Source: a virus
Lineage: Duplodnaviria > Heunggongvirae > Uroviricota > Caudoviricetes
Reading direction: 5' to 3' (one strand)
Length of the DNA stretch: 51,200 bases
IMG/VR virus record: IMGVR_UViG_3300042363_000209
The position numbers and the translations under genes are program-made. Below, one piece after another: positions 5,967 through 22,920 of this stretch; position 1 is the first letter of the stretch; each line of letters opens with the position of its first letter. The notes beneath the pieces are model-generated. The model saw only the letters and a list, made by a program, of their open reading frames with translations, had not been told where the DNA came from and ran no database searches.

Positions 5967-7829
5967 ATGTCTTGTTTACCTGGTACACCTTGCTATAACG
6001 CTTATTATCATCCTAGTGAAAACTGTGGATGTGCTGAGTGCATTAGCAATTCAAATAATGTAATATACGTTGGTCCTAATTTACCAAACTCAGGAGTTCA
6101 AAACGGAAACTGCTTAACTCTTGCTATAGAAAAATTAGATGATGCCATTGGTACAGGTGGTGGAGGAACAGGTACTTCAGGTACGTCTGGTTCTTCTGGC
6201 ACTCGTGGTACAAGTGGAACATCAGGAACTTCTGGTATTAACGGTACACCAGGAGCTTCTGGTACATCTGGAACATCTGGTGCCAATGGTACTTCTGGTG
6301 GTAACGGTACTTCTGGTACCTCTGGTGTAAGTGGTACAAACGGTGCTTCAGGAACCAGTGGAACATCTGGTGGAAGAGGTGCTGATGGAACAAGTGGTAT
6401 TAATGGAACTAGTGGTGCAAACGGTACAAGTGGTCTTACAGGTACATCTGGTACTGCTGGAACAAGTGGTGAAGATGGAACTTCTGGTACAAGTGGTACA
6501 GATGGTACTCATGGAACAACTGGTACGTCTGGAACTTCAGGAACAACAGGTACTAGTGGTACAACTGGAACTTCTGGAACTACTGGCACAAGTGGAACAA
6601 CTGGTACTTCTGGTACCACTGGTACTTCAGGAACAACTGGAACCAGTGGAACAACTGGCACATCTGGTACATCAGGCTTTGAAGGAGGTCTTGCACAATG
6701 GAGATTTAATCCTAGTACAAACACAGACATTAATCCTGGTGCTACATATTTCACTTTAAATGATGCAAGTTGGTTAGCCTCTGCTTCTCAAATTGCTATC
6801 AGTGATTTATCATATAATCCTAGTGCTGACTTCTCAGCATATCTAGATGCACTGAACCCTTTCTCAGCACTTAAGCTAGTTAGTACGGTTGATTCTTCTA
6901 GATTTAAAATATTAGAAATTGTATCCACTTCTCCTTTTGAAGTGGGTTTTGAACGATTTATAGTTACTCAAACTGCAGCTCAGGGTACAAATCCTGCTAG
7001 TGGTGAAGTATTTATGTTAGTTCCTGTAGGTGCTGCTGGTAGTTCAGGAACATCTGGAACAGCTGGTTCTAGCGGTACCACTGGCACATCAGGCACATCT
7101 GGAACCACTGGTACATCTGGTACGAGTGGAACGTCAGGGACTTCTGGTACGTCTGGAACTTCAGGTACAAGCGGTACAAGTGGAACTACTGGCACAAGTG
7201 GAACAACTGGCACAAGTGGAACAACAGGTACTTCTGGTACAACTGGAACCAGTGGATCTTCAGGTCAAAGTACAGGTGGTACATCTGGTACCTCAGGGTC
7301 TTCAGGTCAAAGTACTGGAGGAACTTCAGGTACATCTGGAGCTAGCACTGGGGGTACTTCTGGTACTTCTGGTTCTTCAGGAGCTAGTACAGGAGGTACA
7401 TCTGGAACTTCTGGAACTAGTGGAGCTAATGGAGCAGGATTTAATTCCATTTCTCCTACAACATCAGGAGCTGTTCTTACAGCAAATGGTACATCAAACA
7501 GTGCAACAGCAAATACAGGAGTTACAATTAGTGGTTCTCAATTAAATGCTGGTTCATTCTATGAAACATCAGATATCAGATTTAAAAATGTATTAGAAAC
7601 AAATCCTAATATTGATGTATTAGGAATACAAGTGATTAAATTTACTCGTACAGATGAAGAGTCTAATCAAATTAGATATGGATATTCTGCACAACAGGTA
7701 CAAGCAATTTTACCAGATGTTGTATCAGGAGAAGATAAACTAGTAGTTAACTATTCAGATGTACATACATTAAAAATAGCACAATTAGAAAAACGCATAG
7801 CAGAATTAGAAGCTAAATTAAACCAATAA
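5967..7829 (+). CDS. Tail fibre with Gly-X-Y (GTS) repeats and C-terminal intramolecular chaperone (peptidase S74-like)
   Basis: Two GTS repeat tracts around a globular domain; C-terminus TSDIRFK...RYGYSAQQVQAILPDVV...VNYSD...IAQLEKRIAELE matches the S74 chaperone pattern with terminal coiled coil. Confidence 0.8.
   Translation: MSCLPGTPCYNAYYHPSENCGCAECISNSNNVIYVGPNLPNSGVQNGNCLTLAIEKLDDAIGTGGGGTGTSGTSGSSGTRGTSGTSGTSGINGTPGASGTSGTSGANGTSGGNGTSGTSGVSGTNGASGTSGTSGGRGADGTSGINGTSGANGTSGLTGTSGTAGTSGEDGTSGTSGTDGTHGTTGTSGTSGTTGTSGTTGTSGTTGTSGTTGTSGTTGTSGTTGTSGTTGTSGTSGFEGGLAQWRFNPSTNTDINPGATYFTLNDASWLASASQIAISDLSYNPSADFSAYLDALNPFSALKLVSTVDSSRFKILEIVSTSPFEVGFERFIVTQTAAQGTNPASGEVFMLVPVGAAGSSGTSGTAGSSGTTGTSGTSGTTGTSGTSGTSGTSGTSGTSGTSGTSGTTGTSGTTGTSGTTGTSGTTGTSGSSGQSTGGTSGTSGSSGQSTGGTSGTSGASTGGTSGTSGSSGASTGGTSGTSGTSGANGAGFNSISPTTSGAVLTANGTSNSATANTGVTISGSQLNAGSFYETSDIRFKNVLETNPNIDVLGIQVIKFTRTDEESNQIRYGYSAQQVQAILPDVVSGEDKLVVNYSDVHTLKIAQLEKRIAELEAKLNQ
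6157..6680 (+). repeat. Coding triplet repeat (G-T-S/T/N)n, tract 1 of 5967 fibre
   Basis: Gly every third residue; synonymous codons scrambled; boundaries approximate. Confidence 0.9.
7027..7440 (+). repeat. Coding triplet repeat (GTS)n with GQSTG/GASTG units, tract 2 of 5967 fibre
   Basis: Visible in translation and DNA (e.g. ggcacaagtggaacaact repeated near 7192-7226); boundaries approximate. Confidence 0.9.
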
Positions 7830-8705: not shown

Positions 8706-9971
8706 ATGGCAATAAATATAACATTAACATTAGGAGCTGGGTTAGGTGCTAACTTAGGACCAAACTTTAATCTTACAGCAGATGTTGGAAGTGTAAGTCC
8801 ATCAACTGCTACAAAAGCAGAACTGCTTGCAGGTAAAACTGTTGATGTAGATAATGCTGCTAGTCAAGTGACAGTAACATCTACTGGAGCTTGTACAAAT
8901 GTAATAGCACAAGCTATTCCATGTGCTAGTACTACAACTACAACCACTACAATTAATCCAACTAACAATCTTTATTTTACTAGTGTTGCTGTAAGTAGAG
9001 ATGATGTTACTAGCTCAAATGATGGTAAATACGTAGCTGTAATATGTTCAACAAATAATAAGTTATATATTTCTAATGACTACGGACTTACATATAGATC
9101 AGTTTTTGTAGCTGCTGCAGCAAATTTAATAAAACGAGTTGCAATAAGTGGAACAGGTCAATATATATATTGCACTGTACAACAATCAGGACAACCATCT
9201 ACTATTGTAAGATCTACAGACTATGGGGTTAATTGGAATGCTACAGGGGGTACAGGTAATGCATATTCTTCAATCACTACAAATAGAACAGGACAATATG
9301 TAATAGTTGGTTCAATGAATTCAGGTGAAGCAATAAACGAGCCATACTTAAATCAAGTTTGGAGATCTTCAGACTATGGAGTATCTTTTGTAAGAGTGGA
9401 GTTTTCAATTAATGCAGGTATTGATGTTCTTCCTCAATTAGTATATGATGTTGCAATAAATAGTTCAGGTGATCGTCAATATGCTGCTAGTCCCAATTTT
9501 TCTATAGCACCACTTAGAGGTAGTGTAGGAAGAACAACAAGTGCCTCAAGTATTTTTACACCTAAAGCACTTGATGAAGATCAAACATATTTTGCAGTGA
9601 GTACAAATGCAGATGGATCAAAGGTGGTTGTTGCTAATCAAGGTGGAGTTTATGGATTTAGTCCTGGAGCTGTTCAATTAAAAAGAAGTATAGACTATGG
9701 AGAAACATACGCAAATTTTGGTGGAGTTTCTACTCAATGGGGTGATATAACTATAGATGGAAGCGGTACAAATATTATAGCTATGCAATTTCTTACAGGT
9801 ACAAGTAGATTATATAAATCAGTTTCATTTGGTACGCTTTCTCCAGTGACAAGTTCTCAACTTTGGAATAGTGTATCAATTTCTTATAATTCATTTGTAG
9901 CAATTGCTTCAGAAACAACTGGACTTTGGAGATCTACAAATTCTGGATCTGATTGGATAAAATTACCTTAA
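8706..9971 (+). CDS. Decoration/receptor-binding protein with Asp-box (BNR-like) beta-propeller
   Basis: Six Asp-box-like repeats (YISNDYG, VRSTDYG, WRSSDYG, KRSIDYG, YKSVSFG, WRSTNSG) after an N-terminal module and Thr linker. Confidence 0.65.
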   Translation: MAINITLTLGAGLGANLGPNFNLTADVGSVSPSTATKAELLAGKTVDVDNAASQVTVTSTGACTNVIAQAIPCASTTTTTTTINPTNNLYFTSVAVSRDDVTSSNDGKYVAVICSTNNKLYISNDYGLTYRSVFVAAAANLIKRVAISGTGQYIYCTVQQSGQPSTIVRSTDYGVNWNATGGTGNAYSSITTNRTGQYVIVGSMNSGEAINEPYLNQVWRSSDYGVSFVRVEFSINAGIDVLPQLVYDVAINSSGDRQYAASPNFSIAPLRGSVGRTTSASSIFTPKALDEDQTYFAVSTNADGSKVVVANQGGVYGFSPGAVQLKRSIDYGETYANFGGVSTQWGDITIDGSGTNIIAMQFLTGTSRLYKSVSFGTLSPVTSSQLWNSVSISYNSFVAIASETTGLWRSTNSGSDWIKLP

Positions 9972-9985
9972 TTAAATAAACCAAC

Positions 9986-10468
9986 ATGACAGTATTAATA
10001 ACTTTGACAACAGCTGGTTCTGATACAGGACCTTTTAACATATACTCAAATGCAGATGGGTTTTCAACAATAATCATCTCTGGTGTATCTAGAGCATCTT
10101 TGGTAGCTGGCTATAACGCAACTGTTCCTGATGGAACTACAGAAGTTTTAGTTAGGTCTACAGGAGCTTGTCAAAGAGATCTTTATTTAGATGTATCAGG
10201 TGCTCCTGCTACAACAACTAGTACTACTAGCACAACTAGTTCAAGTACAACTTTAATACCTCCTATTGAATGTTATGGTTATGAGGTTTGTGCAAATGAT
10301 GGTACAGGAGATAGAGATGCTTTTCCTTTTACTTACATAAGTTGTAATGGAACATCTATAGAGTCAAGTGTAGTAAATACGCAATGTAGAGAAATTTGTG
10401 CTGCAAGAGATTCTGTAGATTCAAGTTCTGAAGCTATTTCAATAACAGAAATTGGGCCTTGTTTATAA
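9986..10468 (+). CDS. Small decoration protein (TGPFNIY module + Thr linker + Cys module)
   Basis: 160 aa; N-terminus MTVLITLTTAGSDTGPFNIYS paralogous to the 8706, 18750 and 19481 ORFs. Confidence 0.6.
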   Translation: MTVLITLTTAGSDTGPFNIYSNADGFSTIIISGVSRASLVAGYNATVPDGTTEVLVRSTGACQRDLYLDVSGAPATTTSTTSTTSSSTTLIPPIECYGYEVCANDGTGDRDAFPFTYISCNGTSIESSVVNTQCREICAARDSVDSSSEAISITEIGPCL

Positions 10469-10652: not shown

Positions 10653-11894
10653 ATGTCTGGAAACCAACCCCTTTTGGAGCAGCTACAGCAGATGTTACAC
10701 TGGAAAAAATCAAAGAAATATTACGCTGACAAGCTAGGAGTGACAGAATTAGAGATTGATGAGTTATTAACAGATATTAGAAAGAGAGAAGAAGAGGCCA
10801 TCACTGGCAACTATATATCTGATCTAGAGGACACTGTAGTTAAGTTTACAGAAGACCTAGTGAAAGGAACTGGAGAGATTGTAGCCAATGTCTCAGAAGA
10901 GATTAAAAGCCTTGATGAGCTTATTGAGAAGTGTAAGATAGACACAGATAAGTGGGAGATAACTAAATACGTACAAAACTATTGGGGAAACGGAGATAAT
11001 CCACACTGGCAAGTAAAAGCCTGGTTAGGAAAGAAGTCTGCAGAGCAAGTGTTTCAAGATAGCTTTGTGGACTTTTTAGCTTCATATGAGCCTGTTAGTC
11101 AGGACATTATGAGTCCTAAGTTTATAAATGGTAAGAGTAACGGTATGTTAATTATCAACAAACAAGACTCTCATTTAAACAAATATGATATTGATGGCAA
11201 CAATGATATAGTTGATAGGCTTTCTAACATCATGTACAAGGTAGAGTTGATTGCTAATCAAGCACAGCTTTCCAACAACTTAGAACAAATTACATACATC
11301 ATTGGTTCTGATGAGTTTAACAGTGAGTTTACAGGAATGACCACAAAGGGTACTCCTCAAACAAACACTCATACATATCAAACATCTTTTGAATACATCT
11401 GTGGACATGAGGTGTTAATGATTACAATGTTATTACAATATGCTGAGAATGTGAATGTTGTGTACGTAGCAGGTAATCATGATGAGTTTGTAGGATGGCA
11501 TATGGTTAACTGGTTACAAACGTATTTTAGAAACACAGACAGATTAACTTTTGACTGCTCTCCTAAGTATAGAAAGTACATAAGCTATGGTGGTTCAGCA
11601 ATGATGTTTAACCATGGAGATGCAATTAAGCCTGCTAAGTTAGCAGCACTATTCCCAATAGAATTTAGAGAAGGATGGTCTTTCCATAACAACTTCTACA
11701 TATTCACAGGAGACAAACACCATGAGGTTAGTCACGACTTCAATGGTATTAAATTTTACCAAATACCAGCATTTTCTAATGCTAAAAGCCTTTGGGATGA
11801 TAAGAACGGTCATACAATGTCTAAAGCAGAAGTGACTGGATTCTTAATAGAACAAGGGTCAGGAATGACAAATATATTTAAACAGTATTTATAA
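10653..11894 (+). CDS. Calcineurin-like metallophosphoesterase with N-terminal HTH-like segment
   Basis: Metal-binding motifs D-S-H, GSD, GNHD (11472-11483), NHGD, GDKHH; N-terminal KKYYADKLGVTELEIDELL resembles a helix-turn-helix. Confidence 0.8.
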   Translation: MSGNQPLLEQLQQMLHWKKSKKYYADKLGVTELEIDELLTDIRKREEEAITGNYISDLEDTVVKFTEDLVKGTGEIVANVSEEIKSLDELIEKCKIDTDKWEITKYVQNYWGNGDNPHWQVKAWLGKKSAEQVFQDSFVDFLASYEPVSQDIMSPKFINGKSNGMLIINKQDSHLNKYDIDGNNDIVDRLSNIMYKVELIANQAQLSNNLEQITYIIGSDEFNSEFTGMTTKGTPQTNTHTYQTSFEYICGHEVLMITMLLQYAENVNVVYVAGNHDEFVGWHMVNWLQTYFRNTDRLTFDCSPKYRKYISYGGSAMMFNHGDAIKPAKLAALFPIEFREGWSFHNNFYIFTGDKHHEVSHDFNGIKFYQIPAFSNAKSLWDDKNGHTMSKAEVTGFLIEQGSGMTNIFKQYL

Positions 11895-12628
11895 TGGCAA
11901 CATTACGTAAGTTAGTTTCAGATGTGCGTGGAATGCATAAGCTTATATCCACAGATAACGTTATCACAGATAGGGTTATAGCATCAGAGATTAGAAACAA
12001 CACACAGTTATTAGTTAAACGTGAGACAAATCTCAGAAAGCTTTGGGCTACTGATACTGTCTTTAATACCATCCAATGTTTGGAAATGGTAGAAGTTCCT
12101 ATTTCTGACTGTTGTAATTACGTAGATCCATGTACTGTTTCTAGAAGTAAATATAAACTTCCTAGGATTACAGAAGGAAATTATCAATATTTAATACAAG
12201 GTGTTTATTCTATAAACGCTATGGGAGGAATGGGTACAAAGTTTAAAGAGATTACAATCAATAGATATTTAAACTTACTGGGACTTCCTATTATTAAAAA
12301 ACAAACATACTATTGGATAGCAAATGAAGGTTACTTATATTTGAGTAATCCAAATTTAAAATCAGTTAGGATATCAGCATTCTTTGAAGAAGATATTCCT
12401 AATGATATTGCGTATCCAGAATGTGGTTGTGGAACTGGTCCTGAGGTTACTAATGAAGAATACTGCAAAAATCCTTTGGATAAAGAATATGGTTGTCCAG
12501 GATATCTTGAGAAACAAGTATTAGAGCTTACGTCTCAAAAATTATTATCTACATATTTTAGTATTAAAACAGATATGGCAGATAACGGTGTTGATGGGCA
12601 AGCTCCTAATGCACAACCAACCCAGTAA
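11894..12628 (+). CDS. Tail ring protein (crAss-like)
   Basis: 244 aa, TAATG-coupled on both sides; precedes IHF-like and tail tubular genes as in crAss-like phages. Confidence 0.5.
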   Translation: MATLRKLVSDVRGMHKLISTDNVITDRVIASEIRNNTQLLVKRETNLRKLWATDTVFNTIQCLEMVEVPISDCCNYVDPCTVSRSKYKLPRITEGNYQYLIQGVYSINAMGGMGTKFKEITINRYLNLLGLPIIKKQTYYWIANEGYLYLSNPNLKSVRISAFFEEDIPNDIAYPECGCGTGPEVTNEEYCKNPLDKEYGCPGYLEKQVLELTSQKLLSTYFSIKTDMADNGVDGQAPNAQPTQ

Positions 12629-13104
12629 TGAGGATAAAAATTGATTGGAGAAGCTCCAGTAAAGAAAACTACAATAACTTTTGCAAGAAGCATCCCACAA
12701 TTAAAATTACATTTGATGAGTGGAGAAACATTTTATATTCTTATAATGAGAATTTTAAAAGTTATATACTAGAAACTGGAGAAAAAGCAAAGCTACCTTT
12801 TGGGTTTGGTGAGTTCTCAATCAATAAAAAGAAAAGAAAGAAGGTTAAGGATATCAATGGTAAGGAGTACATTAACTTACCAGTAGACTGGCAAAAGTCT
12901 AAAGAGAAGGGAAAAATTATATACAACTTTAATTATCACACAGAGGGTTACTTTTTTGGCTGGGTATGGTTTAAAGAAACTGCCAGACTAAGAAACATAG
13001 ACTTGTGGTATTTTAAACCTTCAAGAGTTACATCAAGATTGCTCTCACATTATATAAAAACAAACGATACGTATCAACACATCTATCGTGAGTGGAAAAA
13101 ATAA
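12628..13104 (+). CDS. IHF/HU-like DNA-binding protein (crAss tail-module type)
   Basis: Basic 158-aa protein with KLPFGFGEFSINKK (HU/IHF beta-arm-like) and VDWQKSKEKGK...NYHTEGY segment recalled from crAss-like IHF homologues. Confidence 0.65.
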   Translation: MRIKIDWRSSSKENYNNFCKKHPTIKITFDEWRNILYSYNENFKSYILETGEKAKLPFGFGEFSINKKKRKKVKDINGKEYINLPVDWQKSKEKGKIIYNFNYHTEGYFFGWVWFKETARLRNIDLWYFKPSRVTSRLLSHYIKTNDTYQHIYREWKK

Positions 13105-13107
13105 ATT

Positions 13108-14076
13108 ATGTCATACTATTATAAGTACAGATTTGTATCTCCTGAACCAGTTTATGCAACTGTTAAAGAAGAATTAAAAAGCTATTTTGACACAGGAGCT
13201 GTGGATGATTTGCTTTTCCCTACTTATTTAAACAAGTGTTTAAACAAGTTAGGTAGGACAACTTATGCTATTGCTGAGCAAGTTCTTTATATTGAAGACT
13301 TCCAAGCTAGGCTTCCTGATAACTTTTATGCTGCTAGAGAAGCTTGGATGTGTACTGAGATTCCAGGGTATCCTTATCAATCAGCTAACTCATTCTATTC
13401 ACAAGCTGCATCTCAAACAACTATTCAGATAGCACCTATCATTAGTGGAACAGTACCCTGTACCAATCCTCAATGTACAACAGGTTGTCCTACATGTATG
13501 CCTGAGCTTATACAAGCTGTATACAAAACAAACAATGCAATAGCTAGATCTTATAGACAAGAATATTTATTAAAACCAGGTAACATTTCTGCAAGAAACA
13601 ACTGTGAGGTTGAATACAGTAATGCTTGGGAGTTTTATGCTCCCCCTCCAACAGTGCATGAGTTTACTCCTGGTTCTGCTGGCTATGATTCATTTGACAT
13701 TAGAGATAACAAATTTGTTACTAACTTCAGAAATGGTGTAGTACATTTATTATTTTATGCTACAGAGTATGATAATATAGGTAATCAATTGATTCCTGAT
13801 AACTATCGTATTAGAGAGTTTGTAGAAGCATTCATTAAATATAAAGTGTTTGAAACTCTTTCAAATCAAATTAATGATGAGACCTTCCAACAAATACAAC
13901 AAAAGCTAGCTTATTACAAACAGTTACATGATGAAGCATTTATCATGGCTGATATTGAGATTAAGAAACAAACTCCTTGGGAGAAGCAAAGAAGAATTAA
14001 AAATGATTTGCAAAGGTTTGCTCAATATGAACTACCTAATAGAACTAACAGATACGGCAGGAGAAGAAATAATTAA
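13108..14076 (+). CDS. Tail tubular protein (P22 gp4/T7 gp11-like ring)
   Basis: 322 aa; position between IHF-like and tail stabilisation genes; helical N- and C-termini flanking a beta region. Confidence 0.6.
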   Translation: MSYYYKYRFVSPEPVYATVKEELKSYFDTGAVDDLLFPTYLNKCLNKLGRTTYAIAEQVLYIEDFQARLPDNFYAAREAWMCTEIPGYPYQSANSFYSQAASQTTIQIAPIISGTVPCTNPQCTTGCPTCMPELIQAVYKTNNAIARSYRQEYLLKPGNISARNNCEVEYSNAWEFYAPPPTVHEFTPGSAGYDSFDIRDNKFVTNFRNGVVHLLFYATEYDNIGNQLIPDNYRIREFVEAFIKYKVFETLSNQINDETFQQIQQKLAYYKQLHDEAFIMADIEIKKQTPWEKQRRIKNDLQRFAQYELPNRTNRYGRRRNN

Positions 14077-14081
14077 TAATT

Positions 14082-17000
14082 ATGGCAGATCAAGAACAAG
14101 GAAATATTAGACAGGAATTTAGTTTAGGTAGAACTGGACTAAATATGGACTCATCTGTAAACCAGGTTGAGAAGGGTAAGCTTACTTATGCCTTAAATGC
14201 ATCTGTTGAGAATTTTAGTGCCACTGCTGTAAACTACCAAAATGAACCAGGTAATGAGTTATGTCTAAACTTTCCTGAGAACTTTCTTCTTATTGGAACA
14301 CATTTTATTCAAGAGAGGAATCAACATATATTCTTTCTAACTAATCCTGAAACTGGGGCTTCTCAGATTGGATACATGGATAACAACGATTGTATCTATC
14401 ACATGTACGTAGAAGGACTTTGTTTAAACTTTAATATTAACTATCCAATACAAAAAGCTGTACACAAGATTTCAAACTGTAGTACAGAGATTTATTGGAC
14501 AGATGGATTAAACCCTAGAAGATATTTAGATCTTGATAATATTCCATATATTACAACTTTTGCAGATGATGTTATTTGTGATCCTATTGTAACACCAATA
14601 CTTGATTGTAATAAATTAAAGATACAACCTAATTTTAATATTCCAGGTTTAAGTGTTAATAGTATTATTAATGGGGGAGATTTAAGAGCTGGTACATATC
14701 AATTTGCTATTCAATATTGTAGTGCACAAGGAGATGCATACACATCTTACTATTCAGTAACTAATCCAACTCCTATTGCAAATCCAAAGCTTACAACACT
14801 TGATTTTAACTATCCTGTTGGAAGATCTATTGTAGTGGATATAAGCAACATTGATTTAACAGGATATTTTGAATATTACAATTTGGCTGTAATTAAAACA
14901 ATAAATGATATTACCTCTGTTCAATTAGTAGGTACATATTTTATTGATGGTGCTACAAATCAAATTACTTATACAGGGCAATATGAAGAAGCAATTAATT
15001 TAACAGTTGCTGAAATATTTGAAAAGTTTCCATATTATGATATTGCACAAGATGTAACAGCTGTACAAGATATTCTTGTATGGGATCAACTTACATCTAT
15101 TGATAAAATTAACTATCAAAGTATTGCTAGTAAGATTGATCTTCAATGGCAAACTTATAAGATTCCTGCTGGAGAAACTTACGCTGATGAATTAAATGCT
15201 ACTAACTTACGTGGGTATCTGCGTGATGAAATATATGCATTTGAAATTGTTTTCTTATTAAGAAACGGCAAACAAACAAGTGGTTTTCATATCCCTGGTA
15301 GAGTTGCTACAGCTGATGATTTGGTGGTTGTTGATAAATCTACAAATGCTGATTTTATTGGTACAGGAACAACTGCTCCTTATTGGAAAATATACAACAC
15401 TGCAACTGTAGTTGGAGATGCTTTAGGACCTAATATTGGAAATGCTACACCATATAAATTTGGTGATTTTGCATATTGGGAATCTAATGAAGAATATCCA
15501 TGTAACACTCTTTTATATGGAGCTTTAGCTGGACAAAAGATTCGTCATCATAAGTTTCCTGATATTCTAGTTAGTCCAATGTTTGAGTCACAGGCTCCAA
15601 ACTATAATCTTCCAGAATTGCAGAAAGCAAATGCTTTATACCCTATTGGTGTTAAAATAAATACACAACAGGTAATATCGTTAATTGATAATTCTAATTT
15701 AACAGCTGATCAAAAAGCTGATATAGTTGCATATAAAATTGTAAGAGGTGATAGAGCTACAAACAAATCTATTGTAGCAAAAGGTATGTTAAGAAATGTA
15801 GGTAAGTATACAAGAGAGGACCCAACTAGTCCTACTGCTACTTACTATTACTATCCTAACTATCCTTATAATGACATTAAAACTGATCCATTCTTACTTG
15901 AACAGAATAATGCATATAACTCTCAGTGTCAAACATTTAAAGTTGTAGTAACTACGGCTGGCACATTACAATATACTGATTGTTATTCAGGAGAAGTACT
16001 AGCAATTAATATGCCACTTGGTATGACAGAAATATGTTCTGTTACACTTCCTTTAGTAATTACAGGAGTTGCTACATTTACTAACGTTACAGCTATTTCT
16101 TATACATTAACTGCTTATGGATCGTCTACAGCATTTATATACACTGATCCAGTTTCATTAGTAAGTGTCAATATAACTGTTGTACCAAATAATCCTACTA
16201 CTGTAAGTTCTACAACTGTTCCTAGTCGTGTAAGTGGATCTGATAAATATACGATATTAGAAACAACTAATAATAAAAATACAAACTGTTTTCCAAATAA
16301 CTTAAGTGGATTTGATAATAGTTCTAAATATAGAATGGTGTTTAATTCACCAGAGACTTCTTTTGGACAACCTTTTTTAGGTAATGTGCTTAAGTTAGAA
16401 AGTGCTGTATTTGGAGGAGGTAGAGCCCATTTTGTACAAGTTAAAAATCATGCATTATATAAGTTAATTACTAAACAAGCACAAGTAGATGCTTTGAATT
16501 CAAGTTATAACATTGCTAGAATTACAGGTACATTAGATGCTACAGCGATGTTTACTGCTTACCAAGCATATTTAACAATTTATATTAATGGTATTAGCAG
16601 AAGAAACTTTACATACTCATTTAATTCCACTGCTCAATATGATTATAATGCAGATGTTCAAAACGCTGCTCCTGATGCATTTGGTAATATAGGTGTTAAA
16701 CAAAGAGAACTTGATTTATATCAATATCTTATTCCTGGTTTTCAGTCTGTTGGTGATACTTATAATATAAATAACTTTCAAAGAGAATCTTCTGTTTATT
16801 TAAAAACACCAAACGGTGTAACCCCATTACCATTTGCTGAACAAACTCCATCTTTAGTAGTTGCTGGGAACAGTTTAATTACTGATGATTCAAGATTTAC
16901 AATTTCTCAAAGAGATGCTTGTGCATCTCCAGAAACACAAGAACCTATTAAAGTGGTTTCTTATTATGGATCTATTAAGAATATAAACATTAATCAGTGG

Positions 17001-18734
17001 GGTCAATTATATTCTTATAATACAATTGATACAGGTTTCCAAAAACAATTAAGTGATGTATCAGGAATTCAAACTGTGTTTGGTGGAGATACTTTTATTG
17101 GCAGATTTGCTTATAAAACTAAACTTCCTTTCTTTATTGATAATAGAGTGGGAGCTCCTGATGATAGTGATATATTCTACGATGAATTAGGTAATGTTGC
17201 CTATCCACAATACTGGTACTCTGCTAGATCTGTACTAAGCAATTACATGGCTGGTACAACATTAATGAAAAATATTATATCTGTTAAGGCAAACTATCTT
17301 GATTGTCCTAATGATTATACTATTATAAGTAATACTACCACTACCACATCTACTACAGCTGCTCCAGGTAGTACAGCTTTAAGTAGTACAGCTTATTCAT
17401 ATGAGGGCAAGATGTATCTATTTGCTTATGGTATTCCTTATTATTATGTAGAAAGTTCTATAAATGTAGACTTACGTCAAGCATTTAATAATTTTGAAGG
17501 AGACTTCTACCCCCACGTGAGTTCTGGTATTCCTGATAACTGGTTACAACAATCTGTTGTTCCAATTCAATTTGACAATACATATACATATAATGTAACA
17601 TATTCAAAACAGAATAAAGAAAATTTCTTTTCTCACTTACCTGTAGATTTTGATAACAACCAGTGTTATACAAACTTTCCATTCAGAGCAATCTATTCTG
17701 AGGCACAAGCTAATAATCCAAGCGTAAGAGTAAATAGCTGGTTAAATTATGCTCCTGTAGCATTCTTTGACTTTCCTCAAAACTTTGGCAATTTAACTTC
17801 ATTGGACGGTATTCAGAACAAAGCTGTATTAGCTAGATTTGAGAACAAGTCATTGTTATATAATACATTGTTAACAATAAATACAAGTAATCCTCAAGCT
17901 GCTTATTTAGGCAATCCTTCACTATTTAGATCTGCTCCTCCAATTGATTTTGCTGAGACAGACCTTGGATATGTAGGAAGTCAAAATAAGTTCTTATTGA
18001 AGATTCCTAATGGACAAGTAACTATAGATGCTAAAAGAGGACAAGTGTTTCTTATTAATGGAATGGGTGGTCAAATACAAGACTTGTCTGCATTTGGTTC
18101 AGGGCTTAATAAGTTCTTTACAGACCACTTAGCATTTGAGATATTACGTTATTTTCCTAATGCTGATACAGATAATCACTTCAATGCTTGTGGTTTACAT
18201 GGTGTATATGATAGTAAGTATGATAGAATAATTATATCTAAACTTGACTACATTCCTCAACAAGAGTATGTAGATGTTATCCAATATGATGAATTAACAG
18301 GTGAGTACTATATTGATAAAGCTTATGGTGATTTATCTTTAAGAAAGGTAGTTAGTTTAACAGACAGACAATACTTCTGTAACAAGTCGTGGACTCTATC
18401 ATACAGTGTAAATATACAAAGCTGGGTTAGTTTCCATAGTTATATTCCTAACTATTACATAGCTGAAAACAACTTCTTCTATTCAGGATTGAATGAGGGA
18501 TGTGATTTAGAAGCTATTGCTGTTATGGAGATTCCTAGTCCAACTACTACAACTACAACAACAGTTATATTAAATTGTAACTTAGGTGGTACAGCAGAAT
18601 ATGTTATACCAGTAACAACTACTAGTACAACAACTCCTACTCCTCCTGTTTATGATTGTACATTAACTGCAGGAAGTGCTGTTGTAGTAACATATGATTG
18701 TACATTAACTGCTGGAACAGCTATTCTTCAATAA
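14082..18734 (+). CDS. Tail stabilisation / muzzle protein, N-terminal major part, with decoration insertions
   Basis: 1550 aa; N-terminal GLNMDSS...YALNA...NEPGNELC, DELGNV/GYVGSQ/DAKRG and WVSFHSYIPN motifs of crAss-like Tstab (P22 gp10-like); ends in Thr linkers and a duplicated Cys motif. Confidence 0.7.
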   Translation: MADQEQGNIRQEFSLGRTGLNMDSSVNQVEKGKLTYALNASVENFSATAVNYQNEPGNELCLNFPENFLLIGTHFIQERNQHIFFLTNPETGASQIGYMDNNDCIYHMYVEGLCLNFNINYPIQKAVHKISNCSTEIYWTDGLNPRRYLDLDNIPYITTFADDVICDPIVTPILDCNKLKIQPNFNIPGLSVNSIINGGDLRAGTYQFAIQYCSAQGDAYTSYYSVTNPTPIANPKLTTLDFNYPVGRSIVVDISNIDLTGYFEYYNLAVIKTINDITSVQLVGTYFIDGATNQITYTGQYEEAINLTVAEIFEKFPYYDIAQDVTAVQDILVWDQLTSIDKINYQSIASKIDLQWQTYKIPAGETYADELNATNLRGYLRDEIYAFEIVFLLRNGKQTSGFHIPGRVATADDLVVVDKSTNADFIGTGTTAPYWKIYNTATVVGDALGPNIGNATPYKFGDFAYWESNEEYPCNTLLYGALAGQKIRHHKFPDILVSPMFESQAPNYNLPELQKANALYPIGVKINTQQVISLIDNSNLTADQKADIVAYKIVRGDRATNKSIVAKGMLRNVGKYTREDPTSPTATYYYYPNYPYNDIKTDPFLLEQNNAYNSQCQTFKVVVTTAGTLQYTDCYSGEVLAINMPLGMTEICSVTLPLVITGVATFTNVTAISYTLTAYGSSTAFIYTDPVSLVSVNITVVPNNPTTVSSTTVPSRVSGSDKYTILETTNNKNTNCFPNNLSGFDNSSKYRMVFNSPETSFGQPFLGNVLKLESAVFGGGRAHFVQVKNHALYKLITKQAQVDALNSSYNIARITGTLDATAMFTAYQAYLTIYINGISRRNFTYSFNSTAQYDYNADVQNAAPDAFGNIGVKQRELDLYQYLIPGFQSVGDTYNINNFQRESSVYLKTPNGVTPLPFAEQTPSLVVAGNSLITDDSRFTISQRDACASPETQEPIKVVSYYGSIKNININQWGQLYSYNTIDTGFQKQLSDVSGIQTVFGGDTFIGRFAYKTKLPFFIDNRVGAPDDSDIFYDELGNVAYPQYWYSARSVLSNYMAGTTLMKNIISVKANYLDCPNDYTIISNTTTTTSTTAAPGSTALSSTAYSYEGKMYLFAYGIPYYYVESSINVDLRQAFNNFEGDFYPHVSSGIPDNWLQQSVVPIQFDNTYTYNVTYSKQNKENFFSHLPVDFDNNQCYTNFPFRAIYSEAQANNPSVRVNSWLNYAPVAFFDFPQNFGNLTSLDGIQNKAVLARFENKSLLYNTLLTINTSNPQAAYLGNPSLFRSAPPIDFAETDLGYVGSQNKFLLKIPNGQVTIDAKRGQVFLINGMGGQIQDLSAFGSGLNKFFTDHLAFEILRYFPNADTDNHFNACGLHGVYDSKYDRIIISKLDYIPQQEYVDVIQYDELTGEYYIDKAYGDLSLRKVVSLTDRQYFCNKSWTLSYSVNIQSWVSFHSYIPNYYIAENNFFYSGLNEGCDLEAIAVMEIPSPTTTTTTTVILNCNLGGTAEYVIPVTTTSTTTPTPPVYDCTLTAGSAVVVTYDCTLTAGTAILQ
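18651..18712 (+). repeat. Direct repeat TATGATTGTACATTAACTGC x2 (42-nt period)
   Basis: Identical 20-mers at 18651-18670 and 18693-18712 encoding YDCTLTA. Confidence 0.9.
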
Positions 18735-18749
18735 ATAAATTAACGATAT

Positions 18750-19466
18750 ATGTCACAAACAGTAATTATAACAATCGCAGCAGCAGGAACTGATACAGGT
18801 CCATTTAATCTTTTTTCAGATGCAGATGCATACGTTACTGCATTTGCTACAGGAATAGCAAAATCAGCTTTGTTAGCTGGATACACTTCAACCGTGGTGC
18901 CAGATGCTGCTACTATAGTTAGAGTAAAATCTAATAGTGTTGGTTGTACAAATTATGTAGATATGGAAATAACTAGCATAACAACTTATTGTGAATCAAT
19001 TGGTGCAGGAGCTGGTTGTTTTAATTGGGACTTTACAGCAGGTTCAGAAGGTGCAATAGTACAGTGGACAGATTGTGATGGTAATAATCAAAGTAGAGTA
19101 TTAACTGATGGTGAATCAGGAAATGCATGTTTATGTGATAATGCAACACCTAATGTTTTAGAAGGCAGTTTAGCTATTATAAGTCAAGTTGGTCAATGTT
19201 CTCCTCCTCCTGAGGAGTATCAAATTGATAATTCAGCTACTGGAACTTCAGGTGATGCTTGTACAAGTTCAACAACAACAAGTATTGTTTGGGCTGAATC
19301 TGGAAATACAGTACCTATGGTAGGGTTAATTTTATACACCACTACTAATCCTTTAGCAAATCCATTTGTTGGTTCAGTAGGTTGGCGTAAATTAACAGGA
19401 CCATTAGACACATATGCTGTAGAAATTAATACAAGTGGAGAGATTACAAATTATGTAACTTGTTAA
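18750..19466 (+). CDS. Decoration protein built from three shared modules
   Basis: 238 aa; TGPFNLF N-module, WTDCDG module, C-terminal AC...LY...C module; own A-rich start context. Confidence 0.6.
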   Translation: MSQTVIITIAAAGTDTGPFNLFSDADAYVTAFATGIAKSALLAGYTSTVVPDAATIVRVKSNSVGCTNYVDMEITSITTYCESIGAGAGCFNWDFTAGSEGAIVQWTDCDGNNQSRVLTDGESGNACLCDNATPNVLEGSLAIISQVGQCSPPPEEYQIDNSATGTSGDACTSSTTTSIVWAESGNTVPMVGLILYTTTNPLANPFVGSVGWRKLTGPLDTYAVEINTSGEITNYVTC

Positions 19467-19480
19467 AATACTTACAATAA

Positions 19481-20347
19481 ATGGCTAAGATAGTAATAAT
19501 AAAATTAACAGGAGCTGGTAACAGAACAGGACCGTTCAATATCTATGATAACTTAGGTACTGTTTTGGGTATAGCTGTGTCCAAAGATAACCTTATTGAT
19601 GGTTACACAGTTAGTGTTGCTGATGCTGTTACTTCAATTATTATAGAATCTACAGGAAGGTGTAAGACTATTATTGATGTAGACATTACAACAATGACTG
19701 TTGAACAAATAGCTGCTGTTGTATACACTCCAATTAATACAGCTTCTTTATGGAGACATCTTGCTAACACAACTATTTATAATAAGTATTATGATATTAT
19801 AGAACCTTACATTATTGAATACCCATTCTCATATCAATCATATGATGAGATTCTTCAGAATGTAAAAGACTATACAAAGGCTTATAAATATCTTCCTATA
19901 GCAGATGGTGTGTTTAATGATAATGCTCAGATAGAAACTGACAACCATTGGTTCAATAAGGCAGTGTTATATAACGGTCAACAGTCTACAGGTGTATTAG
20001 AATTGGTACCAAAACCAATTAATAACCTAAAAGCTTATTTACAATATCCTATATACAATGCTGAGAGTAAAACTATCATGTATACTAAATCTGATAATTT
20101 TTATCAGTATAATACATTTTGGAGTTTAGTTAAAAATAAAGCCGTACCTTTGTTTACGGTGAGCTGTGAGTCATTATCAATAGACAAGATTGTAAATCAA
20201 GCTAATATGGATTACGGAAAAAGATCATATAAGAAAGAACCTTTAAGAGCTAAAGAACTTAAGGTGAGGCATATTCTTGATAATACATCAGAAGCCAATT
20301 TAGTATCTCAATTCATTATTACACCATCGCAAATTTCTTACAAGTAA
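19481..20347 (+). CDS. Probable C-terminal part of tail stabilisation/muzzle protein fused to a TGPFNIY module
   Basis: From residue 89 SLWRH...YNKYY..IEPYIIEYP...FNKAVLYNGQQSTGVLEL...LRAKELKVRHILDN resembles the C-terminal region of crAss-like Tstab. Confidence 0.55.
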   Translation: MAKIVIIKLTGAGNRTGPFNIYDNLGTVLGIAVSKDNLIDGYTVSVADAVTSIIIESTGRCKTIIDVDITTMTVEQIAAVVYTPINTASLWRHLANTTIYNKYYDIIEPYIIEYPFSYQSYDEILQNVKDYTKAYKYLPIADGVFNDNAQIETDNHWFNKAVLYNGQQSTGVLELVPKPINNLKAYLQYPIYNAESKTIMYTKSDNFYQYNTFWSLVKNKAVPLFTVSCESLSIDKIVNQANMDYGKRSYKKEPLRAKELKVRHILDNTSEANLVSQFIITPSQISYK

Positions 20348-22920
20348 TGGCTAAGTGGTTAAATAAATACGAGCAAGGAGGAATGGTCTTAAAGAAAAAG
20401 ACTAAAGATAACTATGACCTAAAGTTTAATCCTAATGATGTAGAAGTATCTGTAGGTCCTGGTTACGTAGGAGATGGTTATGATACAACAGGTAGAAACT
20501 ATTCTCCTGCATGGGGAGGTCAGTTTGCTATGGGTGGTAGCTTACCAGGTGCTGTAGGGTTCACGTACGCACGTGTAGCTGGCTCAGCTCCTGCTAATGG
20601 TAAGTATACTAAGAAGACTAAAGCAAGTGCTCAGAATGGTAAAGATATTCAAAAAGAAAGATATAATGAATTATATGCTCCAATAGAAAATAAAGTATTT
20701 GATGCTATAGGAACACAAGATAGTTATGATAAACTTCCATATTCAACTAAAGATTTTCTTAATAAAACTATAGCAGGATTTTCTGTTGCTTCTAATAGAA
20801 ACATACCTCCTATGGACCCAATTATTAAAGAGGTTCAGAATAAAGTACAGGAATTACCTAAAGAAGAACTTACTAAATTATTAAATACTAATTGGTCTAA
20901 GATAGGTCTTGCAGGTGCTATGAAAAATACACCATCAAGTGTTAGTTATTTAGATATGTTAAAGTATATAAACCACTTTAACAAATTAAAGAAAAAAGGA
21001 CATACATTACAGAATGGTGGTGAGATGGAGTTTTATCAGAATGGACTTGATTGGAAACCTAACAATATAAGTAAAGATGGTTCTGTTATTAAAGATGACA
21101 GAGGACAATGGGCTCACCCAGGTGAGATTACAGAGATAGGTTCTAATGAAATAACAATGCAGGGAGTTGACTATCCTGTTCTTGGTGTATCTGATACAGG
21201 TGATACAAAGATGATGCAACCTGGAGAAGATTACAAGTTTGATGGTGATAAGGTTACAGAATATCCAATGATGCAAGGTGGTGGTTGGTTAGATAAATAT
21301 CCTGAACCAATGCGTCAAGATGCTACAAGAGTTGCTGCTCCTATAAGACCTCTTACAAAGAAAGAACAAGAAGAGAATGCTAGAATAAATAAAGAAACTC
21401 AAAAAAGAACCAAAGAACGTGATGAAAAAATTATAGCTGAAAGAGCAGCTAAAAGAAAAACAAAAGGAGATGTAAATGTTCCTGGTAGTTTTAATATAGC
21501 AGAAAAAGCTAGATTGTTTCCTGAGAGTGTTGGTGGAGTGGGAGAAATGTTTGATGATTACTTAAATCCAGCTACATATGTAGGTGTCTTAGCAGATGCT
21601 TTAGGAGAATCAATTGCAGCAAGAGACCCAAAAGCTATTGCAACATCTTTGGCATTAGCTGCTGGTACAGGAGCATTAGGAATAGATCCTTTAGGAAGTG
21701 CTTTGAAAGTTCCAGGAAAAGTTGCTCAATCAATGGAGTCTGGATTACTTTCTAATGCATATAAACTAAATCCTTATGCATTTAAACCTACAGAAGGAAT
21801 GATGTATAGAGGGCTTGGAAAAGAAGGAATGGAAGATGCAGTACAGAGTGGTCTGTTTAGAGCTAAACAAAATGTAACTCCCACTAGTATAGGTAACTTT
21901 AATACTACTAGACAATTTAGTAAAGCTTACTATAGTCCTAGATTTGATATAGCAGATCAGTATGGACAAGGATTTATTGCTGAGGTACCAAGAGCAGCTT
22001 CTGACTGGGGAAAAAGATATGGTAAAAAAGAATGGAGTCAAATAGCTCAAAGAGATATACCTACAACTGAAGGTAAGATATTAAAGAAAGATTGGTTAAA
22101 AGGATATAAAGAAGTTTCTAAAAATAAATCAACAAAAGTATCTGAAATAGACTGGGCTAAATGGAATCCTGAAATTCCTAAGAATAAAAAGTTAATGGAG
22201 GAGTATATTAATATAGAAAACTCTACTAAAGCCAATGATGTATGGATGAAAAATCCTGATGGTAGTGAATTTAAAGGAACTCCTGAACAGTTTGTACAAC
22301 AGCAAAGTCAAAACTTTAAAAAGGCATTTGGTAACTCTAAGTTAGTAAATCCAGATGGTTCTCCAATTATGTTATACCATGGAGCTCCAGAAAGGTTTAA
22401 TGTTTTTGACCCTGCATTATTTCAAAGAGGAGATGCTGGATATTCAGGAGTTGGAATATATACAACACCATCAAAAACAGTTGCTGATAGTTATGCTTAT
22501 TCTTCACGTTCATTTATAGGAGGAAAAGAACATACTCCTACTGTTTATGAATTATATGGTCAAGCTAATAATCCAATTAGTTCTGAACAATTAGTTAATG
22601 AAGGAGGTAAAAGAGATTTGTTTAATTTTAATAGAACAGCAAATTGGAAAGGAGAAATACCTATTGAAGAAAGATTGACTGGATATGATGCTGCTATTGC
22701 TAATAAACACCCTAATGTAACAAACGTTAGACCTTGGAATGACGCATATGAAATAGTGTTTCCAACAAATAAACAACTTAAATCAGCTGTAGGTAACAAT
22801 GGAATGTTTGATATGAACAATCCAAATATATATAAAGCTCTTCTTCCTGCAGTAGGAGTTGCTGGAATAGAAAGAGCTTCACAAAAGAAAAATGGTGGCT
22901 GGCTAAGTAAATATAAATAA
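20347..22920 (+). CDS. Virion cargo protein with ADP-ribosyltransferase-like domain(s)
   Basis: WMKNPDG...FKKAFGNSKLVNPDGSPIMLYHG...GVGIYTT...ADSYA...YEIVF...QLKSAVGNNGMFD is the ART-PolyVal-type pattern; repeated xxxGG motifs. Confidence 0.65.
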   Translation: MAKWLNKYEQGGMVLKKKTKDNYDLKFNPNDVEVSVGPGYVGDGYDTTGRNYSPAWGGQFAMGGSLPGAVGFTYARVAGSAPANGKYTKKTKASAQNGKDIQKERYNELYAPIENKVFDAIGTQDSYDKLPYSTKDFLNKTIAGFSVASNRNIPPMDPIIKEVQNKVQELPKEELTKLLNTNWSKIGLAGAMKNTPSSVSYLDMLKYINHFNKLKKKGHTLQNGGEMEFYQNGLDWKPNNISKDGSVIKDDRGQWAHPGEITEIGSNEITMQGVDYPVLGVSDTGDTKMMQPGEDYKFDGDKVTEYPMMQGGGWLDKYPEPMRQDATRVAAPIRPLTKKEQEENARINKETQKRTKERDEKIIAERAAKRKTKGDVNVPGSFNIAEKARLFPESVGGVGEMFDDYLNPATYVGVLADALGESIAARDPKAIATSLALAAGTGALGIDPLGSALKVPGKVAQSMESGLLSNAYKLNPYAFKPTEGMMYRGLGKEGMEDAVQSGLFRAKQNVTPTSIGNFNTTRQFSKAYYSPRFDIADQYGQGFIAEVPRAASDWGKRYGKKEWSQIAQRDIPTTEGKILKKDWLKGYKEVSKNKSTKVSEIDWAKWNPEIPKNKKLMEEYINIENSTKANDVWMKNPDGSEFKGTPEQFVQQQSQNFKKAFGNSKLVNPDGSPIMLYHGAPERFNVFDPALFQRGDAGYSGVGIYTTPSKTVADSYAYSSRSFIGGKEHTPTVYELYGQANNPISSEQLVNEGGKRDLFNFNRTANWKGEIPIEERLTGYDAAIANKHPNVTNVRPWNDAYEIVFPTNKQLKSAVGNNGMFDMNNPNIYKALLPAVGVAGIERASQKKNGGWLSKYK

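Follow-up and report, generated by a model that had tools for sequence, protein, structure and literature searches.

The muzzle (Tstab) is encoded by two genes rather than one in an uncultured crAss-like phage and in about 180 related contigs. This large protein, which caps and gates the tail tip, is a hallmark gatekeeper of crAss-like phages and has hitherto been treated as a single conserved chain. In the window, meaning the whole stretch of 51,200 nucleotides of phage DNA analysed here, it is divided between an open reading frame (ORF) of 1550 aa at positions 14082-18734 and one of 288 aa at 19481-20347, both on the plus strand. An earlier note on this DNA had proposed a split of Tstab over these two ORFs; it proved correct to the base, and all its coordinates were verified. 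At a probability of about 80%, we consider that fission divided the muzzle gene at a single hairpin loop, close to where the beta-propeller ends, and that the virion protein therefore consists of two separately translated chains.

The genes occupy the position in the tail module that is typical of a crAss muzzle, with ring proteins on the 5′ side and an ART-PolyVal-domain protein from 20347 on the 3′ side. Tail ring protein 2 (11894-12628, plus strand; Pfam CrAss_Ring_2, E 7.5e-17) and tail ring protein 1 (13108-14076, plus strand; Pfam CrAss_Ring_1, E 6.9e-10), the latter immediately upstream of the muzzle, are separated by a 158-aa ORF on the same strand (within 11894-14076), a crAss-type synteny. 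The conserved core of the N fragment (14082-18488, plus strand; residues 1-1469) is recognized by Pfam crAss_MUZ and PHROGs 37948 and 15100 and ends in the motif WVSFHSYIPNYYIAENNFFYSG (...NNFFYSG), which finishes at base 18488. A new C-terminal extension of 81 aa follows (18489-18734, plus strand; residues 1470-1550 plus TAA), consisting of poly-Thr linkers and repeats that contain Cys. It includes the post-break segment LNEGCDLEAIAVMEIPSP, which is conserved, a pair of poly-Thr linkers and another three CxLxGTA units (C1499, C1526 and C1540). The stop codon, TAA at 18732, is backed by a second in-frame TAA at 18741. A middle gene of 238 aa (18750-19466, plus strand) then shares the frame of the big ORF, and the C fragment lies in another frame. 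The latter comprises a TGPFN head (approximately residues 1-80) and a conserved linker to residue 88 (19481-19744, plus strand), followed by the muzzle C-terminal part (19745-20347, plus strand; residues 89-288 plus stop), which opens at S89 with SLWRH...FNKAVLYNGQQSTG...LRAKELKVRHILDN and corresponds to the portion of PhiCrAss001 gp44 that starts at about residue 1237 and runs to its C-terminus. Scans for promoters and terminators between the genes gave results at chance level.

By sequence comparison, the homology of both ORFs to the muzzle family is far beyond chance. Pfam crAss_MUZ matches the 1550-aa ORF in three stretches (117.6 bits against a cut-off of 27, E 7e-34), and a single profile, PHROG 15100 (1783 positions), matches both: the big ORF covers its positions 11-557, and residues 88-286 of the 288-aa ORF cover 1588-1781 (E 7e-13). 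The single-chain relatives include Leptolyngbya phage Lbo-JY46, Flavobacterium phage FpV4 and more than 100 metagenomic proteins. In tblastn, both ORFs fall within one annotated CDS in Lbo-JY46, and likewise in FpV4; residues 36-1472 of the big ORF are 34% identical to the Lbo-JY46 protein, and the C part is 66-73% identical to the C-termini of fused proteins of approximately 1644 aa. The C-terminal region of the 19481 ORF thus aligns, as had been anticipated, to the C-termini of single-chain Tstab proteins, in which the two stretches are separated by a gap of only 5-17 residues, and the distance from the PNYY motif to WxH is 14-28 residues in 71 fused relatives. In the suggested HMM comparison with gp44, hhalign places the junction at gp44 1232-1239 (probability 89%, E 2e-6), a mapping that consists of one profile-profile alignment together with fold matches from a relative rather than from the window's own protein. 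The break coincides with the boundary between the Pfam domains crAss_MUZ and crAss_MUZ_C (gp44 1235/1244). With HMMER, PF25729 (crAss_MUZ_C) matched neither the 288-aa protein nor its fused relatives, and does match gp44 1244-1333; a phmmer search of both ORFs against PDB sequences returned chance matches only.

The split is a conserved, clade-wide state of a large environmental clade. It is found in 178 of the 185 related loci that were fetched, so it is not a peculiarity of this genome, and the C part is intact and adjacent in all 178. The split contigs come from many samples, at 53-97% identity. The idea that relatives routinely encode the C-terminal region separately accordingly holds inside the clade, but not in the wider family. 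A misassembly or gene-calling error in this contig might be suspected from its origin in a metagenomic assembly and from the short low-complexity repeats within the extension, but the junction has no long near-identical flanking repeats, and the public record Virus NIOZ-UU157 contains a 287-aa orthologue of the 288-aa protein (57% identity). Since 178 independent contigs share the same architecture, an assembly artefact, an objection that the earlier note had itself set out, is excluded, and an artefact of any kind in this contig is exceedingly improbable.

A second alternative is that the two ORFs yield one polypeptide after all, by readthrough, frameshifting, ribosomal bypass, RNA splicing or protein trans-splicing across 18489-19744. 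Introns and inteins are well known in crAss-like phages, as are reassigned stop codons (PMC7886860), and the big ORF and the middle gene share a frame. Nevertheless, as had been argued for readthrough, two in-frame TAA codons intervene and the C gene uses a different frame; moreover, the relative frame is 2, 1 or 0 in 20, 12 and 6, respectively, of the 38 distinct junctions without a middle gene, and the insert ranges from 109 to 1630 aa-equivalents. The spacer from N stop to C ATG is 2-34 nt long, every relative frame is seen and no frame relation is conserved. Elsewhere in the window, frames read open with table 11 and usually stop at TAA. Splicing, too, finds no support, in that Rfam at E values up to 1 gave one sub-threshold chance match and no intron model at the break; a Pfam scan found no Hint/intein domain, and some N-fragment extensions are only 14-26 aa long and therefore cannot be an N-intein. 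Each gene has independent translation signals: the head always stands at the start of its ORF with a conserved Met, and the start context of the C gene resembles that of the next gene. Production of a single chain is, therefore, very unlikely, and separate translation is the preferred reading.

Both parts are under purifying selection: dN/dS is ~0.31 in the head and ~0.11 in the C part. No stretch of the locus is better conserved than the C part, in which 43 sequences share 61 invariant columns from residue 89 onwards. The AlphaFold2 (AF2) model of a fused relative (P0016) aligns over residues 67-612 with residues 295-1371 of the PhiCrAss001 muzzle (7qol_P), reaching its C-terminus (Z 16.9, rmsd 3.0, 327 aligned), and also matches the P22 gp10 and T7 gp12 nozzles to their C-termini (Z 8-11); the fold is taken from this relative and not from the chains of the window. 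Modelled alone, the C part reaches a pLDDT of 30-60, against 80-90 for the equivalent region in a fused chain, a contrast that may partly stem from the shallower alignment of the 288-aa protein. The 288-aa protein is a putative virion component, and this poor prediction could mark it as a decaying remnant, or as a protein with an unrelated job, beside a muzzle that functions without its C-terminal domain. The invariant columns and low dN/dS of the C part, the intact and adjacent gene in every split locus and the retention of the equivalent region, to the extreme C-terminus, in every nozzle or muzzle structure matched all argue against such a remnant, which we regard as unlikely.

The history of the split appears to be one of gain and loss. 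Fused groups sit inside the split clade (SH-aLRT 99-100), and an AU test rejects monophyly of the split forms (p 0.00024). Because fused forms are nested in the split clade, the split state has reverted at least twice, which amends the fission proposed earlier. A first tree had placed the fused forms outside a single origin of the split, a topology overturned by denser sampling. The insert (extension, optional genes and head) could alternatively be a recombining cassette, swapped by homologous exchange between co-infecting phages, in which case the split did not arise once and then revert by deletion. The nested position of the fused groups would fit such exchange, as would the modules shared by distant loci at 83% identity and the shift, in one lineage, of the break site relative to the CxLxGTA units. 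We hold the cassette to be a possible but less probable account; it is compatible with fission rather than opposed to it, and bears only on how the split state is gained and lost. The earlier note had further suggested that an array was inserted into a loop and that fission followed. The loop break and the array are both present, and this order is plausible, with weak hints from a long-loop fused form (P0013) and from one lineage with CxLxGTA units on both sides of the break.

The extension of the N fragment has no counterpart in fused relatives. Its opening ~25 aa are common to all split loci, after which it becomes hypervariable, with lengths of 14-804 aa and a content of poly-Thr linkers, CxLxGTA units and Cys-rich modules. 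A separate observation concerns cysteines at the two new ends: a 'CC' after ...YSG in the N fragment co-occurs perfectly with a Cys two residues before the W of WxH in the C fragment (both in 37 rows, neither in 97 and no discordant row). This pattern goes back to only two changes on the tree, and neither feature is present in the lineage of the window.

The TGPFN head, approximately 75 aa long and Ig-like, is carried by the C gene in all 178 split loci. It is predicted to form an Ig/FN3-like beta-sandwich (AF2 pLDDT 85-92), and its fold matches are generic Ig/FN3-like and T9SS-CTD-like ones with Z 5-6, all below 6. The middle gene, described earlier as a decoration gene between the two parts, is indeed there and is TGPFN-headed, but it is optional, occurring in 43 of the 178 split loci with the head at its start every time, and is not what breaks the muzzle gene. 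In the window, it comprises the head (residues 1-74; head HMM E 9e-13), a Cys-rich module (79-150) that is 83% identical to part of the N-fragment extension of another locus (L028), and a C-terminal domain (160-237) matched by PHROG 21885, whose function is not assigned in PHROG. As judged from such sequence matches, the middle gene and the N-fragment extension exchange modules. In the ESM Atlas the TGPFN head had no usable match and those of the middle gene were all unnamed viral clusters, and a tblastn search of cultured phage genomes with the middle gene's head (18750-18980) gave no match. Two paralogous TGPFN-headed genes lie upstream on the plus strand and are considered here as context only: one of 421 aa in the tail-fibre cluster (8706-9971; head HMM E 6e-8), with weak BNR/sortilin-type matches in its payload, and one of 160 aa (9986-10468; head HMM E 3.5e-15). 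Three fused loci (L113-L115), which are without the upstream fibre cluster, have no TGPFN-headed genes. Across 43 loci, the number of CxLxGTA units correlates with the number of TGPFN-headed ORFs (Spearman 0.42, p 0.0045), a value that ignores the relatedness of the loci and is only a hint.

Under the fission reading, the 1550-aa chain would supply the N-terminal bulk of the muzzle core, and its C-terminus, freed by the break, would bear a hypervariable, Thr-linked array of small modules that most likely project outside the tail tip for adhesion or decoration. The 288-aa chain would supply the last propeller strand or strands and the C-terminal domain, with the small Ig-like TGPFN head in front. 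By analogy with Pseudomonas phage A1002 and its split nozzle, strand complementation where the hairpin is broken most likely allows the two chains to regain the canonical fold. The head, found also on the ORFs starting at 8706, 9986 and 18750, is probably a common N-terminal mounting module. More speculatively, and with low confidence, the opened hairpin might serve as a docking platform, offering two free ends for plug-in, with the Thr-linked CxLxGTA 'rope' as a rail for Ig-headed proteins. Its clients may be the C fragment and the products of the middle genes, where present, and of the two fibre-cluster genes further upstream, and disulfides may staple the rail in basal lineages, a device analogous to the fibre-binding rope of A1002 though of independent origin. 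Receptor-binding payloads could then be mounted either covalently, in the extension, or non-covalently, behind the head, and re-fusion could remove the whole device again.

A large environmental clade thus encodes its muzzle in two genes, cut exactly at a domain boundary, and would offer a case of natural, reversible protein fission in a virion machine. The hypervariable array on the broken loop points to a site of varied host-contact specificity in uncultured phages. Annotations should treat the '1550-aa Tstab' and the 288-aa gene as two parts of one component; as Tstab length and C-terminus differ, this matters for Tstab phylogenies and marker-gene screens.

The muzzle, PhiCrAss001 gp44, is the crAss-like homologue of the podovirus nozzle; muzzles of this type are characterized by a hexameric state at the tail tip and by a gating loop, located in propeller blade 4. 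The proteins described here resemble gp44 (references PF25731 crAss_MUZ, PF25729 crAss_MUZ_C and PDB 7QOK/7QOL) in their crAss_MUZ match, in synteny (ring proteins 2 and 1 precede, cargo genes follow) and in the fold of the fused relative. However, sequence identity is low and gp44 is one chain of 1371 aa, whereas here the region from about residue 1237 onwards has a gene of its own, fronted by an extra Ig-like head, and the N part ends in a variable array. Gp44 itself is known to carry Ig-like domains inserted into its propeller loops (PMC10172136). The closest cultured relatives, Lbo-JY46 (XAI97387, 1654 aa) and FpV4 (gp29, 1961 aa), have an unsplit muzzle that lacks the TGPFN head and bridges the junction with about 10 residues. 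The T7 gp12, P22 gp10 and Sf6 gp8 nozzles, whose propeller and C-terminal part match the model of the fused relative at Z 8-11, each consist of a single, much smaller chain that lacks the crass domain.

The closest precedent comes from the Pseudomonas podophage A1002, whose split nozzle is composed of the nozzle-base gp42 and the nozzle-rope gp39 (PLoS Biol 2026, PMC13730344). Its second protein carries C-terminal propeller strands and part of the platform, and at its other end an Ig-like domain and mounting elements; completion of the nozzle fold by strand augmentation has been shown structurally (PMC13730344). The likeness lies in a nozzle homologue made in two chains with the C-terminal propeller and platform on the second, here at the level of genes. 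A1002 belongs to an unrelated phage lineage, and its gp39 and gp42 are numbered in reverse order, the C-part protein first, with gp40 and gp41 between, whereas the genes described here are colinear, lie next to each other and have sister forms that are fused. The A1002 rope is on the C-part protein, while the long variable array is here on the N-part protein; A1002 has a structure, and the present case, known from genes alone, stands beside it as a second, independent one.

Three co-directional genes were called at the locus under translation table 11, namely a large ORF encoding the N fragment (14082-18734, plus strand, 1550 aa), a middle gene (18750-19466, plus strand, 238 aa) and a C gene (19481-20347, plus strand, 288 aa); no sizeable ORF was found by this calling on the opposite strand of the locus. 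The large ORF reaches the end of ...WVSFHSYIPNYYIAENNFFYSG at base 18488 and runs for 81 residues more, in which LNEGCDLEAIAVMEIPSP, a seven-Thr run, NCNLGGTAEYV, a second Thr/Pro linker and two copies of YDCTLTAG follow in order, and it stops at TAA 18732, with a second TAA in the same frame at 18741. The middle gene keeps the frame of the large ORF, while the C gene lies in a different one, and residue S89 of its protein, the start of SLWRH..., falls at 19745. The coordinates given in the earlier note are exact. The starts of the C gene (19465-19489) and of the next gene (20331-20355) have in common a 25-nt context, ...CTTACAAnnAATGGCTAAG, with 84% identity, which looks like a common translation-start signal.

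The large ORF is matched by Pfam crAss_MUZ (117.6 bits, cut-off 27) and by positions 11-557 of PHROG 15100, a virion structural family of 1783 positions, and residues 88-286 of the 288-aa ORF match positions 1588-1781, the extreme end of the same profile. Tstab, the P22 gp10-like tail stabilization protein of Yutin et al. (PMC7886860), was renamed the muzzle protein (gp44 in PhiCrAss001) by Bayfield et al. (PMC10172136). CrAss_Ring_2 (11894) and CrAss_Ring_1 (13108) lie upstream of the muzzle genes, directly after which comes an 857-aa protein with an ART-PolyVal ADP-ribosyltransferase domain (20347-22920; Pfam E 7e-14), probably cargo destined for ejection, and beyond it very large ORFs; this arrangement is a crAss-type tail module. 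Elsewhere in the window, a 620-aa collagen-repeat fibre protein (5967-7829; Pfam Collagen E 2e-30) ends in a region that falls just short of the cut-off for Peptidase_S74, an intramolecular chaperone domain (E 4e-4; 21 bits, cut-off 22), and a 413-aa ORF (10653-11894) matching PHROG 704 'DNA repair exonuclease' (E 1.6e-41) separates the fibre cluster from the ring-protein genes, an unusual site for a nuclease.

In single-chain relatives, the counterparts of the large ORF and of the C-terminal region of the C gene share one chain, as the earlier note had stated for crAss-like Tstab. In the Leptolyngbya phage Lbo-JY46, tblastn matches to residues 36-1472 of the large ORF (34% identity, E 2e-87) and residues 132-288 of the 288-aa ORF (31%, E 4e-13) adjoin within a single annotated 1654-aa CDS, and both ORFs likewise fall in a single CDS, gp29 (1961 aa), of Flavobacterium phage FpV4. 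A length-restricted search with residues 89-288 returned 165 longer proteins, many of ~1644 aa, with up to 73% identity across these 200 residues. At the junction in such fused forms (for example, ...NNFYYSGKVGVGMWRHL...), the PNYY motif and WxH are 14-28 residues apart (71 proteins); in the window, what lies between them is 81 aa, a stop codon, the entire middle gene and a further 88 aa.

The split is genuine, and it is conserved. Related DNA was gathered in three scans, with the 288-aa protein against IMG/VR and with the fused relatives P0009 and P0012 against IMG/VR and JGI metagenome contigs, and three HMMs (core end, C part and head) classified the resulting 185 loci, window included, as 178 split, 3 fused and 4 incomplete. 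The head opens the C gene in all 178 split loci, of which 43 carry one or two middle genes each, and the N-fragment extension varies from 14 to 804 aa (median 185). Across 38 distinct junctions lacking a middle gene, the spacer from the N stop to the C gene is 2-34 nt, mostly 11, and relative to the large ORF the C gene is in frame 2 at 20 junctions, frame 1 at 12 and frame 0 at 6; this variability argues against a conserved recoding signal and, with the two in-frame TAAs, upholds the earlier view that readthrough is unlikely. No Rfam intron model gave a match, and no long repeats able to mislead an assembler flank the junction. The C part has a dN/dS of ~0.11 and the head one of ~0.31 (Nei-Gojobori, 263 pairs), rough values because dS is near 1. 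When 1.84 billion representatives were searched exhaustively with HMMER, head-plus-C-part proteins of 281-290 aa formed about seven 50%-identity clusters, with identity as low as 40%, the remainder of the family being long single chains or fragments of them; a 287-aa orthologue of the C fragment is present in the public record of Virus NIOZ-UU157. A BFVD match, the 142-aa UniProt entry A0A8S5LXY9 of CrAss-like virus sp. ctRQZ5, bears the name 'Crassvirus muzzle protein C-terminal domain-containing protein'; it may reflect either a separate split, in a crAss-like virus of the gut, or an artefact of gene calling.

The position of the break in the fold was read from an AF2 model covering 615 aa of a fused relative (mean pLDDT 72; 80-90 across the last 370 residues). 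The model aligns with the PhiCrAss001 muzzle chain 7qol_P (Z 16.9, rmsd 3.0, 327 aligned, reaching chain residue 1371) and with the nozzles P22 gp10, Sf6 gp8 and T7 gp12 (Z 8-11), each to the nozzle C-terminal end, while alignment with unrelated WD40-type propellers stops near model residue 433. The junction, at model residues 413-417, is a turn joining two predicted strands. Profile-profile alignment (probability 89%, E 2e-6) sets YSG and xxW opposite A1232-K1234 and K1237-W1239 of gp44, within ...SEFYAFKDGKMWEQF..., and independently Pfam ends crAss_MUZ at 1235 and starts crAss_MUZ_C at 1244 of gp44, so that the gene appears broken at a curated domain boundary, inside the last propeller hairpin. 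As modelled in the fused relative and aligned here, the C fragment comprises the last propeller strand(s) and the C-terminal domain. In a model of the 288-aa protein alone, the C part reaches only pLDDT 30-60 and the head 85-92, which fits a C part that requires its partner, although its alignment was also shallower.

The head is a predicted beta-sandwich of ~75 aa with generic matches to T9SS C-terminal domains and FN3 modules (Z 5-6). It is confined to ORF starts, namely those of the C genes (178), of every middle gene (45 in 43 loci, two of which have two) and of upstream fibre-cluster genes, and was not found inside the large ORF in the related loci surveyed. These loci have 0-3 headed genes in the fibre cluster, 4-6 kb upstream; in the tail-fibre-like cluster of the window there are two (8706-9971 and 9986-10468), each with a poly-Thr linker after the head. 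The first ~25 residues of the N-fragment extension are constant in every split locus, and the rest is freely variable, with poly-Thr linkers, 0-8 CxLxGTA units and assorted Cys-rich modules. The middle gene's Cys-rich module, at residues 79-150, shares 83% identity with part of the extension in a related locus (L028), so that one payload can either follow a head or belong to the N chain. The C gene of one lineage (L089, L116, L133 and L136) starts ~22 aa further upstream, a pair of CxLxGTA units preceding its head, and the stop/start point therefore varies relative to the modules. This arrangement hints that array and head were formerly contiguous within an unbroken insert, and lends weak support to the earlier, plausible proposal that array insertion came first and fission followed. 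The head could dock onto CxLxGTA units. The number of these units correlates weakly with the number of headed ORFs per locus, uncorrected for relatedness. Among 134 split rows, a 'CC' right behind ...YSG-x-N-x in the N fragment and a Cys two before the W of WxH in the C fragment occur only together (for example, L072-L083, L103, L176 and L180), a perfect co-variation resting on just two changes on the tree, and the long-loop fused form P0013 has a Cys at each loop base; the Cys residues flanking the break may be stapled by a disulfide.

A single state change sufficed in a FastTree built on the last ~700 residues and including 59 split rows, and the fused forms nearest to these had the longest loops (P0013, P0021 and P0022). 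Once sampling rose to 134 split and 122 fused rows, the tree required three changes, and a 19-member ~1644-aa fused group and the P0021/P0022 pair were both nested in the split clade. IQ-TREE agreed on this nesting with 46 representatives (SH-aLRT 99-100), and an AU test, its hypothesis framed post hoc from the tree, rejected split monophyly (delta lnL 189, p 0.00024). Because the head and post-break segment are common to all split forms, one fission and at least two re-fusions, or gain and loss of a cassette by recombination, is more economical than many independent fissions.

Between the N and C genes, promoter and terminator signals did not exceed chance. We propose that a single transcript yields two chains, each translated independently, which would pair strands at the broken hairpin and so restore both the propeller and the C-terminal domain. 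On the tail-tip exterior, array and head would exit side by side, because the channel would have no room for an insert reaching 800 aa. The propeller loops of gp44 carry inserted Ig-like domains, and variation in length changes surface properties (Bayfield et al., PMC10172136). The structure of the Pseudomonas podophage A1002 shows a nozzle (gp42 and gp39) divided like the one described here, with the C-terminal propeller/platform piece borne by a second protein, which also mounts fibres by beta-augmentation.
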